Source: a virus. Taken from it: a stretch of 64,000 nt of DNA. Shown one piece after another: positions 26,270 to 63,456 of the stretch. The stretch's first letter is position 1. Every line of letters begins with the position of its first letter. The position numbers were made by a program, and so were the translations under genes. The notes beneath the pieces were generated by a model. That model had not been told where the DNA came from, ran no database searches, and saw only the letters and a list, made by a program, of their open reading frames with translations. Where the stretch lies: the IMG/VR virus record IMGVR_UViG_3300031455_000001, positions 32,001 to 96,000 of that record; one strand, given 5' to 3'.

Positions 26270-26536
26270 TTAATTTAACTTATTTTTTAGGAACTCAATA
26301 AAGTCATCGTCTTCAACATTGTAGAGTTCTATTTCGATGTCTTCAATAATATACCTGTCATAACTTTCTCTCAAAACTCTATACTCGTATTTGCGATTGT
26401 TGAGACTGTTATATTCCCAAGTTAAATTGCTTATTAATTGATTAAACCTTGTGTCTGGTTGTTTTTCCCAAATTTCTTCCAACAAGCTCATGACCACTTT
26501 AATTCTTTTTGGATCTCTAGTGTTATGATTTTTCAT
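26270..26536 (-). CDS. conserved phage protein (RDPKRI...W...PDxRFxQL)
   Basis: Motif typical of a widespread small phage family. Confidence 0.65.
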   Translation of the reverse strand: MKNHNTRDPKRIKVVMSLLEEIWEKQPDTRFNQLISNLTWEYNSLNNRKYEYRVLRESYDRYIIEDIEIELYNVEDDDFIEFLKNKLN

Positions 26537-61312: not shown

Positions 61313-61496
61313 ATGCGTTCACCTCTTTGATCTGCTTTATATCTACAATATACCATAAAAATTTGTACTTGTCCACTCATAAATGTTAGAAATAAGCGAT
61401 AAAAAGGTTATATGATAGATTAATTTAAAAATATATTGTCAATCCATGTAGTTATGTGTAGAATGAAAGACAAATAAAAAAATAAATAAAAAAAAA

Positions 61497-61563
61497 CGAA
61501 AGGATTCGCACTCCTTTCGCTCACCACCAAAAGTGGATGTGATTCGCACTCACGCAAATCCAC
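61497..61563. other. twin hairpins with identical TTCGCAC loops
   Basis: CGAAAGGA-TTCGCAC-TCCTTTCG and GTGGATGTGA-TTCGCAC-TCACGCAAATCCAC. Confidence 0.7.
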
Positions 61564-61665
61564 AAAAAAACACCACAAAAACCAAAATCAAAACCAAATA
61601 TATGACTTTATTATAAATGCTTATATAAGAAATTGCAACACTAAAATTAGCATTTACATAATTTT

Positions 61666-62114
61666 CATGGTGGTGAGTGAAACAGGCGAATCCTTTCCTA
61701 TACGGAAGGGATATTTGTGTTTCTTCCACATGGAATTGCCTGTACACCATGTAAAAAACTGTTTGATTTGGAAGAAATCGTGCATAATGTCCTTAGTAGG
61801 CGTTTAAAATATCTTCCACCCGCCTGATTATTCCTATTCATATGAGGGCGGTGGTGGTCGCTACCATTAAAGGCGAGGGCGGTAGACGTTGTGATCAAGG
61901 TCACAGGTCGTCTTATCTGTTATCATTCTAGGGGCGTTTTTAGAATGGGATAAGGCTCAACGGAAGTTGAAAAGTCGAATAGGTTTATACATACGGATAC
62001 CTGTTAATGCTCCCGATTTTCAGATGAGGAACAGTATAAAGATTTTGACTCTATGTTGACATCATTTTACATTTAATTGTATTTTGTTGCCAACATAGGG
62101 TCAAAATCTTTTTT
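61666..62114 (+). ncRNA. candidate large structured non-coding RNA (~450 nt), family unknown
   Basis: GC-elevated, no convincing ORF, >=9 stems with plus-strand G-U pairs, GGAA tetraloop, 3' long hairpin plus T6. Confidence 0.65.
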
Positions 62115-62338
62115 CCAGCCGTTTCCAGTTCGCAACCCATTTTCAGAAGGGGTAAACCTAAAAGTCAAGAGCATAAAGAACTAAATAAACAATTTTTATG
62201 CTAAATAAGAGCATTGTAGGTTTGGATAACCACTATAAATATATAGTGGTATATATAGAGAGTATAGGAAATGTAGAAATTTAAAGAGAAATTGACTCTG
62301 ATATAAGTATACCATAATATTTTGCATTTGTAAATAAG

Positions 62339-62530: not shown

Positions 62531-62697
62531 ACAAGCAACCCCTTTTGATTTTCATATCTGATTAATATAGCTATTATATAATTATTATACCCACTTGTAA
62601 GATTTTTTAAACAACAAAAAAAGGACTTACGCCCTTTAAATTTTTGAAGTCCAATATAGGGGTATTGCAGATATATTTTTTGAGTTTGTTTATAATG

Positions 62698-63129
62698 TTG
62701 ATCCAGTTTTGAGTCAATTTTATATAAGGGATATGAAGGGTAGATTTTAGAACGCTACATGAATATTGATCCACTTTTGAGTCAATTCTATAATAAGCAT
62801 TAGAAAATGATGATTGGATAATAAATTGATAAGTGAGAGGGATATTGAATAGATATTGATCTAGTTTTCAGTCATAAGGATAGAAGAAATGTGGCATGAG
62901 AGAATAAAGATGAAATTTGTTTACATAATTAAATTATTTTGCTTTTCACAGTCTGTTTAAATATTGATTCACATTTCTATCATGGTGATTAAAGTTGATT
63001 AAGATGTAATCGTTGTTATTGTGATTTTGTTTTTAATGTTGATTGGTGAATAGCTATAAAGAGATAGGATCAATTTGATTAGAGATAATTCAGACAATAC
63101 CTAAAAACTGATCCAGTTTTCTGTCATGG
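62698..63129. repeat. five iteron-like 22-bp direct repeats
   Basis: TTGATCCAGTTTTGAGTCAATT-like at 62698, 62766, 62856, 62964, 63108. Confidence 0.75.
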
Positions 63130-63456
63130 TGATTGTAAGATGGTTAGATGTTTAATTGACTTAAAAAGCAAAACAACATATATAATTTCATATAATGATC
63201 TACTTTCTTATGGCTGTGATCGTTCAGCAATCGTCCTACAGTAGGTTTTGTTAACACTTTAAACTTCTTGCTTAGGAACATTGCGTAAAGTCTCCTTCGC
63301 CTCTCTACACTTGTTAAAATAGCAGGTGTATCTAATGAAAGAAGCTCTGTCTTATGGATCGTAATAAAAGTCAAAAATGAGAGGATGGAACACCTGTCTG
63401 ATTTTCTGATCTTAATAATTTTAGTAATTTCTTATTTTCCCGTAATCGTTATTGAG

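Follow-up and report, generated by a model that had tools for sequence, protein, structure and literature searches.

Several described systems invite comparison with the locus reported here, a noncoding module carried by a 155 kb phage. In ColE1, which replicates by the class B theta mode, the primer RNA II is paired with an antisense RNA, RNA I. The module resembles ColE1 in having a long noncoding RNA of several hundred nucleotides, a short counter-transcript (predicted here) whose whole length is complementary to the 5' region of the long RNA and which ends near the start of that RNA, stem-loops on both partners, and possibly no dedicated initiator protein. In contrast to ColE1, the module has Gram-positive hosts and no sequence or Rfam similarity to the ColE1 RNAs, it places a terminator-like hairpin between the antisense target and the core where ColE1 has none, and its core is far more conserved and pseudoknotted than is known for RNA II. 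The attenuation systems of the Firmicute plasmids pT181, pIP501 and pAMbeta1 also direct an antisense RNA against a leader, as is predicted for the module, and in these systems a leader segment pre-empts a downstream intrinsic terminator, a geometry that folding predictions place clearly in the phage copy but that differs in the module's plasmid copies. They regulate a rep mRNA, whereas the module has about 450 nt of conserved structured RNA with no reading frame. No rep reading frame was found downstream of the attenuator, there being no conserved ORF in the core and only variable genes beyond it.

Single-strand origins of rolling-circle plasmids are orientation-specific, highly folded and noncoding, and they reside together with a rolling-circle Rep and a double-strand origin; no such Rep was seen in the carrier plasmids of the module that were examined. 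Like the ROOL and GOLLD RNAs, the module is about 500 nt long or longer, has numerous covarying helices and resides on mobile elements of Bacillota hosts, but it matches neither of their Rfam models and is distinguished by a dedicated antisense RNA (predicted) and a parA neighbourhood. Few large RNAs are known to covary so extensively, and most of these are still without a function. The replicon of the B. thuringiensis plasmid pHT1030 (ori1030) reportedly requires no plasmid protein, and its minimal form is said to adjoin a stability locus. Were the module to be ori1030, the replicon would already be known, and the RNA structure, the antisense partner and the phage copies would be new. A search of papers and supplements with a diagnostic 12-mer gave unrelated matches only. 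The use of ori1030 in the vectors pHT304/pHT315 and pBS0E is the subject of a passage in PMC13001229.

The phage genome and the position of the module

The source IMG/VR virus record comprises 155,345 bases, of which bases 32001-96000 form the window, i.e., the whole 64,000-nt stretch that was analysed; positions are those of the window unless genome coordinates are specified. Its two ends overlap, which makes the assembly circular or permuted. The ribonucleotide reductase of the phage is ~76% identical to those of large Bacillus siphophages such as pW2, Thrax5, Sophrita, PJN02 and FADO. Nearly all genes of the window are carried on the minus strand, and the RNA element sits within an ORF-poor gap (61313-62338), with a G+C content of 41-50% against a background of 30% and with more G than C on the plus strand. 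The 63-aa gene adjoining the element has homologues in 34 Tsamsa-like phages, and in the Tsamsa-like relatives this gene is followed by a protein gene in place of the module; whole-record searches of three such relatives did not find the module. No homologues were found for the flanking 152-aa gene, and a search for loci related to the element region likewise returned none.

The module lies between two copies of a direct repeat:

61349-61372, left copy of a 24-nt direct repeat
62308-62331, right copy of the same repeat, 83% identity

Both copies form part of extended -10 promoters on the minus strand (TGGACA/TTTACA-17-TGGTATAYT), which the promoter scan places at 61375-61347 and 62334-62306. 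This bracketing points to insertion of the module into early promoters or to its recombination between them, and the flanking repeats, taken together with the relatives that lack the module, are consistent with an insertion into the early region.

Predicted fold of the phage copy

The sequence-only reading of the window had proposed a large structured RNA at 61666-62114, transcribed opposite to the surrounding genes. Folding of these 449 nt agrees with a large structured noncoding element, with stems at the positions given in that reading and a plus-strand minimum free energy (MFE) of -149.6 kcal/mol as compared to -111.6 +/- 5.95 for dinucleotide shuffles (z -6.4; no shuffle among 100 did as well). 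On the minus strand the element folds well too (z -7.2), and since both strands do so, the direction cannot be read from the folding of a single sequence. The features of the predicted fold are as follows:

61728-61752, plus strand, hairpin with loop AAUUGCCUG, followed by AAAAACUG at 61756-61763
61764-62167, plus strand, core domain with closing helix 61764-68/62163-67 (consensus of 21 copies)
61770-75/61811-17, 61820-31/61840-51, 61853-57/61864-68 and 61889-95/61900-06, plus strand, inner helices of the core
61910-17/61949-56, 61925-31/61940-46 and 61957-61/61966-70 (GGAA loop), plus strand, further inner helices of the core
61833-61839, plus strand, pseudoknot arm CCTATTC in the loop of helix 61820-51, with its partner at 61977-61983
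61977-61983, plus strand, pseudoknot partner GAATAGG, with covariation among distinct copies
62038-62111, plus strand, long hairpin, an inverted repeat with 37-nt arms that are 81% complementary, then T6 at 62109-14
62115-62169, plus strand, conserved 3' tail with the blocks CCAGCCGTTTCC (62115-26) and AAAAGTCAAG (62160-69)

The core measures about 410-470 nt, and the leader brings this to about 700 nt. The long hairpin is found at the same position in the plasmid copies with another sequence (CTTATCC...GGGATAAG; helix 14 of the consensus), and this hairpin, as part of the earlier proposal, is supported. The proposal that the RNA ends at its T6 is doubtful: because conserved blocks and the closing helix lie beyond the T6, and half of the U-run is taken up in the stem, a 3' end at 62114 is unlikely, and by this conservation the RNA probably ends farther downstream.

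The view that the element belongs to no known Rfam family was upheld. No match to Rfam 15 was obtained at gathering thresholds in the whole window, the models searched including ROOL, GOLLD, OLE, raiA, HEARO, RNAI, 6S, tmRNA, RNase P, group I and group II introns and the Bacillus-plasmid motif. A permissive Rfam scan yielded only chance miRNA-type matches on the long hairpin, at 14-23 bits against cut-offs of 54-200, and two plasmid homologues (L014 and L015) gave zero Rfam matches at E<=1. A protein-coding explanation of the element was considered as well and is ruled out: the longest ORFs of the core are 30-80 aa and differ in frame and strand between copies, the gap lengths do not favour multiples of three (231/92/67), and the ORFs of the element in the phage have no PHROG or Pfam match.

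Relatives on plasmids and phage-plasmids

BLAST against a plasmid collection gave the first leads, which were B. cereus plasmids of 7.3 kb and a Pediococcus element of 13 kb, and the matches on them fall in unannotated, G+C-rich DNA. With a B. cereus plasmid copy as the query, 99 PLSDB plasmid records ranging from 7 to 260 kb were retrieved, along with Bacillus phage C30-2. Scanning for the conserved hairpin pattern gave 15 true contigs among the GTDB species representatives, plus one chance match, and 87 IMG/VR stretches, mostly on contigs of 50-56 kb. A blastn search of the element region in distant mode against 50,697 phage records produced no match, and a viral pattern scan with an exact 22-mer produced zero. 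The family, with pBFH_1 of strain G9241 and pALH1 among its carriers, numbers over 180 copies across B. cereus-group plasmids and phage-plasmids, and the module, roughly 0.9 kb in length, is widespread on these elements and present as one copy in the phage (about 61436-62170). One 61.7 kb viral contig (IMGVR_UViG_3300036783_000190) contains two copies of the module's signature hairpin (L048 and L062).

The phage copy is ~50% identical overall to the plasmid copies, with conserved blocks interspersed. A covariance model built from 13 plasmid copies, with the phage copy left out, has a single match in the window, on the plus strand at 61869-61984 (score 41.7 bits, E 4.6e-9). All marks of the family are found in the phage copy, namely the AAUUGCCUG hairpin with AAAAACUG, the CCURUUC/GAAYAGG pairing, the GNRA hairpin and the long 3' hairpin, as are the family blocks CAGCCGU (62117-22) and AGUCAAG (62163-69). 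By these sequence comparisons, the putative RNA element is a member of a large family absent from Rfam and is not a phage-specific novelty. The suggestion of an undescribed phage noncoding RNA therefore holds as to its absence from Rfam and fails as to its being phage-specific, the family living mainly on B. cereus-group plasmids and phage-plasmids, and the boundaries proposed for it (61666-62114) were too narrow, as the module spans about 61436-62170 and includes a predicted antisense small RNA.

Regions from Pediococcus and L. plantarum have a near-exact 24-mer and a few blocks in common with the phage copy. A sub-domain covariance model did not confirm these Lactobacillales regions (best E 0.044, partial), and it is possible that they are distant relatives of the element. 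The Pediococcus element pKPP02 (circular, 13,190 bp) encodes small and large terminase subunits, a portal, a major capsid protein and a head-tail connector, with no tail genes, and looks like a capsid-forming satellite or a mini phage-plasmid.

Covariation, strand and pseudoknot

The consensus analyses are based on an alignment of 21 copies in which one B. cereus lineage dominates, and for this reason counts of alignment cells overstate the number of independent events; the numbers of pairs and of pair types are the more reliable measures. The RNAalifold consensus of the plus strand contains 103 pairs at -94.1 kcal/mol, and that of the minus strand 78 pairs at -48.2 kcal/mol. Standard pairs occupy 96.7% of the cells, as compared to 89.2% in shuffled alignments and 40-47% when the partners are slid by 1-3 columns. 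Among the homologues, where the sequence-only reading had advised looking for covariation, compensatory double-sided changes were found in 50 pairs, against 17.5 +/- 2.7 in shuffles and 13-24 with slid partners. The observed measures of the consensus fold were reached by none of 500 shuffles. The plus-strand consensus also contains 314 G-U cells versus only 15 A-C cells, and this ratio, together with the RNAalifold energies, identifies the plus strand as the one that folds, as had been deduced from the phage sequence by itself. The covariation shows that the plus strand carries a large predicted fold, with more than 12 helices and one pseudoknot kept by compensatory substitutions, and we consider it very likely that a functional structured element exists on this strand.

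The phage copy is misregistered by MAFFT L-INS-i in the long hairpin and near 61976, and its pairs in these places were read directly. Compensatory changes were found in the phage helices 61728-33/61747-52, 61770-75/61811-17, 61820-31/61840-51, 61889-95/61900-06, 61910-17/61949-56 and 61957-61/61966-70, the last with its GNRA loop. The stem of the 61728-52 hairpin covaries, with G-C in 19 copies and A-U in 2. Its loop motif TGGAATTGCCTG is identical in all 21 aligned copies, an invariance that is partly by construction, since the motif doubled as a search pattern.

Of the individual stems drawn in the sequence-only reading, comparative data back the 5' hairpin at 61690-61712 (ATCCTTTCC/GGAAGGGAT at 61690-98/61704-12), the GGTGG/CTACC stem (61853-57/61864-68), the TTGTGAT/GTCACAG stem (61889-95/61900-06), the TCAAC-GGAA-GTTGA GNRA hairpin and the hairpin at 61925-46. 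Two others had to be given up. The first stem of that reading, CATGGTG (61666-72) with CACCATG (61745-51), has both of its motifs present, but it clashes with the conserved local hairpin 61728-33/61747-52, and the AGGCG/CGCCT stem clashes with the conserved helix 61820-31/61840-51. The segment 61769-77 had been noted as complementary to two loops, and of the two pairings, TGGAAGA/TCTTCC (61770-75/61811-17) is supported, and the alternative with 61720-28 was not seen in the relatives.

The long-range pairing of CCTATTC with GAATAGG (61833-39/61977-83), also drawn in that reading, covaries without exception. As the CCTATTC lies in the loop of helix 61820-51 and pairs with 61977-83, the interaction is a pseudoknot. 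Both motifs are present in 92 of 96 distinct copies (in the other 4, one or both were not found), and in these the pairs are CCTGTTC/GAACAGG in 77 copies, CCTATTC/GAATAGG in 14 and a G-U variant in 1, with no mismatches. Both pseudoknot states occur within pairs of copies that are otherwise close (L014 vs L024 and L022 vs L027), which argues for several independent switches.

Predicted promoters, antisense RNA and attenuator

Upstream of the core, scans for promoters, terminators and inverted repeats gave the following features:

61436-61464, plus strand, promoter TTGTCA-17-TAGAAT (P1; 10 of 12 matches in the scan), predicted start near 61471
61471-61665, plus strand, leader of the putative long RNA, with twin hairpins at 61497-61519 and 61533-61563, both with the loop TTCGCAC
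61486-61603, minus strand, predicted ~118-nt antisense small RNA, complementary to the leader throughout and deduced from a minus promoter and terminator
61638-61610, minus strand, small-RNA promoter TTGCAA-17-TATAAT, with a palindromic -35 box common to the plus-strand candidate promoter 61633-61662
61522-61494, minus strand, intrinsic terminator, with a T9 run at 61493-61485
61498-61529, plus strand, leader segment X, the predicted antiterminator arm, complementary to segment Y at 61668-61697 (inverted repeats)
61668-61725, plus strand, segment Y, then the 5' hairpin 61690-61712 and a U-rich tail, a terminator-like attenuator (terminator scan)

Both plus-strand promoters suggested from the sequence alone were found again by the promoter scan, and the conserved one is the distal promoter at 61436-64. 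An alignment of the 420 nt upstream of the core places a -10-like element (TGTAGAAT / GGTAAAAT / GTTAAAAT), with a -35 box 16-18 nt upstream, at the same position in divergent plasmid copies. The plasmid leaders contain twin hairpins with identical UACCAC loops at the same place as those of the phage, and twin stem-loops with identical loops are predicted on both RNA partners. On the minus strand, equivalents of the terminator are found in 9 of 12 family lineages and are more stable on that strand, and nearly all lineages have a promoter immediately ahead of the 5' hairpin, at -87 to -129 relative to the anchor. From the conservation of this promoter and terminator, a small minus-strand RNA is predicted, ~118 nt long in the phage and up to ~190 nt in the plasmids, which would stop a few bases from the start site of the long RNA.

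All 18 lineage representatives have a hairpin with a U-run at the position of the 5' hairpin, and the sequences of its stem are unrelated among them. Segment Y includes the 5' arm of the hairpin 61690-61712, and in the MFE structure of the free phage leader, X pairs with Y; when the antisense target is blocked, the 61690-61712 hairpin forms. The free-leader MFE structures of four plasmid copies retain the 5' hairpin, and the conserved complementarity of the plasmid copies is to the 3' arm of the 5' hairpin and its U-run. Given this persistence of the plasmid hairpin in the free leader, the attenuation switch is well defined only in the phage. The 5' hairpin and U-run could also simply be a structural helix.

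Genomic context of the copies

A divergent parA operon adjoins the module in pALH1, pBFH_1, pN451-2.3 and one L. plantarum plasmid. pBFH_1 is a complete siphophage genome with DnaD and IstB-like lytic replication genes 12 kb from the module, and the 1.66 kb gap beside its parA contains the module alone. In phage-plasmids such as P1, such a place is occupied by the plasmid-prophage replicon. Carrier plasmids of 7-14 kb have no typed replicon, and larger carriers have various typed replicons. The 7.3 kb plasmid encodes, 500 nt downstream of the module, a 164-aa protein with an HTH_36 and a weak DnaD_N match, which could be a small initiator. In general, the genes downstream of the module are variable and belong to no known family. 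Short direct repeats with a spacing of ~35-36 nt lie downstream of the module in some plasmids; they are absent from the phage and were accordingly rejected as a defining part of the module. In pALH1, parA and the module are separated by dense arrays of GAAATAGGGA-type repeats in both orientations (L023, 3057-3420), and these arrays are probably the pALH1 partition site.

The phage genome contains ten exact or near-exact matches to the host Spo0J/ParB parS site (consensus TGTTNCACGTGAAACA) and has no obvious parB. In genome coordinates (window positions being these minus 32000), the sites are at 26497, 26927, 40641, 41668, 56515, 58162, 97199, 97558, 98111 and 124417, and three of them are 3.2-4.1 kb from the module. 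GC skew gave no origin signal, as it follows gene orientation both in the phage and in pBFH_1.

A candidate replication or copy-control RNA

With this context in hand, we favour the reading that the module is a counter-transcript-controlled, plasmid-type replication or copy-control RNA, to which we assign a probability of roughly 0.45. Among the functions guessed at from the sequence alone, that of a replication primer or control RNA is thus the one that the context favours. The long RNA would start at the conserved promoter 61436-64, and the convergent ~118-nt antisense RNA (61603 to 61486) would overlap its first ~130 nt. In the phage, pairing of the leader segment 61498-61529 with 61668-61697 would prevent the terminator-like hairpin 61690-61712 with its U-run, and binding of the antisense RNA would free this hairpin such that transcription stops before the core. 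The core RNA would be the rate-limiting positive element of a plasmid-type replicon, acting as a primer or an activator RNA, and the module together with the host-type parS sites would allow the 155 kb phage to persist as an episome. It is the logic of plasmid copy control, as in RNA I/RNA II of ColE1 and the attenuation of pT181 and pIP501, together with the parA neighbourhood, that makes a positive replicon element the most likely role of the core.

Several observations count against a replicon. Larger carriers have other typed replicons, three related phages do without the module, no parA adjoins the module in the phage and no plus-strand gene lies downstream of it there, and the GC skew is uninformative. 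With the possible 164-aa initiator of the 7.3 kb plasmid, the module may depend on a Rep protein. A more specific form of the proposal, i.e., a ColE1-like, RNA-driven family of Gram-positive replicons with a pseudoknotted RNA of ~500 nt, throttled by an antisense RNA and having no dedicated Rep, which a virulent-looking 155 kb siphophage would have captured and would use as an episome with host parS sites, is one that we consider rather doubtful.

A reading that may well be correct, even if we do not lean towards it, is that of a large ornate RNA of mobile elements with a non-replicative role, whether as a switch RNA in immunity or in the lysis-lysogeny decision, as a decoy or anti-defence RNA, or as a ROOL/GOLLD-like scaffold, its level being set by the antisense RNA. 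The structural evidence is identical for such an RNA, and the conserved unpaired blocks, GNRA loops and pseudoknot are typical of a tertiary architecture or of protein partners. The module has HTH regulators on its flanks in the 7 kb plasmids, the possibly related region of the 13 kb Pediococcus capsid/terminase element comes just after a CI-like gene, and some carriers of the module have other typed replicons. Antisense attenuation from convergent promoters also drives non-replicative switches, as in prgQ/Anti-Q of pCF10. Nevertheless, no protein partner or downstream gene is consistently found with the module, no similarity to the ROOL, GOLLD, OLE, raiA or HEARO models was detected, and its location next to parA in phage-plasmids is more in keeping with a maintenance module.

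That the fold acts in single-stranded DNA when the plus strand is exposed, either as a signal for lagging-strand or single-strand initiation (sso/ssi-like) or as a single-strand promoter, is improbable. Covariation and a G-T wobble bias would look alike in such an element, and the first matches were to small plasmids. However, the module is two to three times the length of known single-strand origins, its carriers are mostly plasmids of 50-260 kb and tailed phages, and no rolling-circle Rep was found among the plasmids examined, including the proteins of the 7.3 kb plasmid. Conserved promoters and an intrinsic terminator surround the module, and GNRA tetraloops are kept over covarying stems (consensus helix 12). 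Finally, a product of the minus strand is very improbable, namely an ~800-nt transcript that would run from the promoter 62334-62306 to the terminator 61522-61494 and act on the leftward early genes as their leader or attenuator. In its favour, that promoter and a good terminator are present, the neighbouring genes are all on the minus strand and the single minus-strand sequence folds well. Against it, the consensus fold of the plus strand has twice the stability of that of the minus strand, the 314 G-U cells become A-C mismatches on the minus strand, and the promoter at 62334, which lies outside the plasmid homologues, copies a generic phage promoter found on either side of the insert.

The replication or copy-control reading, if correct, would explain the upkeep of many seemingly replicon-less Bacillus plasmids and phage-plasmids, would supply a missing class for plasmid typing schemes, and might reveal the RNA basis of a vector origin that has been in use for decades. 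If the module is not a replicon, it would be a new ornate RNA with a built-in experimental handle in its antisense RNA. The family sits where a prophage replicon is expected, appears to have its own antisense regulator and is missing from Rfam, and for this phage the module suggests an episomal way of life not shared by its relatives.

Other features to the right of the module

Several further features were observed beyond the module. At 62694-63134 of the window, five or six plus-strand (A)TTGATCCAGTTTTGAGTCA repeats lie in ORF-free, G-rich DNA at irregular spacings of 68-144 nt. Several of these repeats read as TTGATC-17-TATAAT promoters facing away from all genes, and they could be iterons or operator sites instead of promoters. 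Three of the parS sites cluster in and just right of a 1.7 kb gap where leftward genes switch to rightward ones. The first large rightward gene after this control region (L046, 5689-7362; genome 98688-100361, plus strand) encodes a 557-aa protein with a weak match to a DnaJ-type CXXCXGXG zinc finger.
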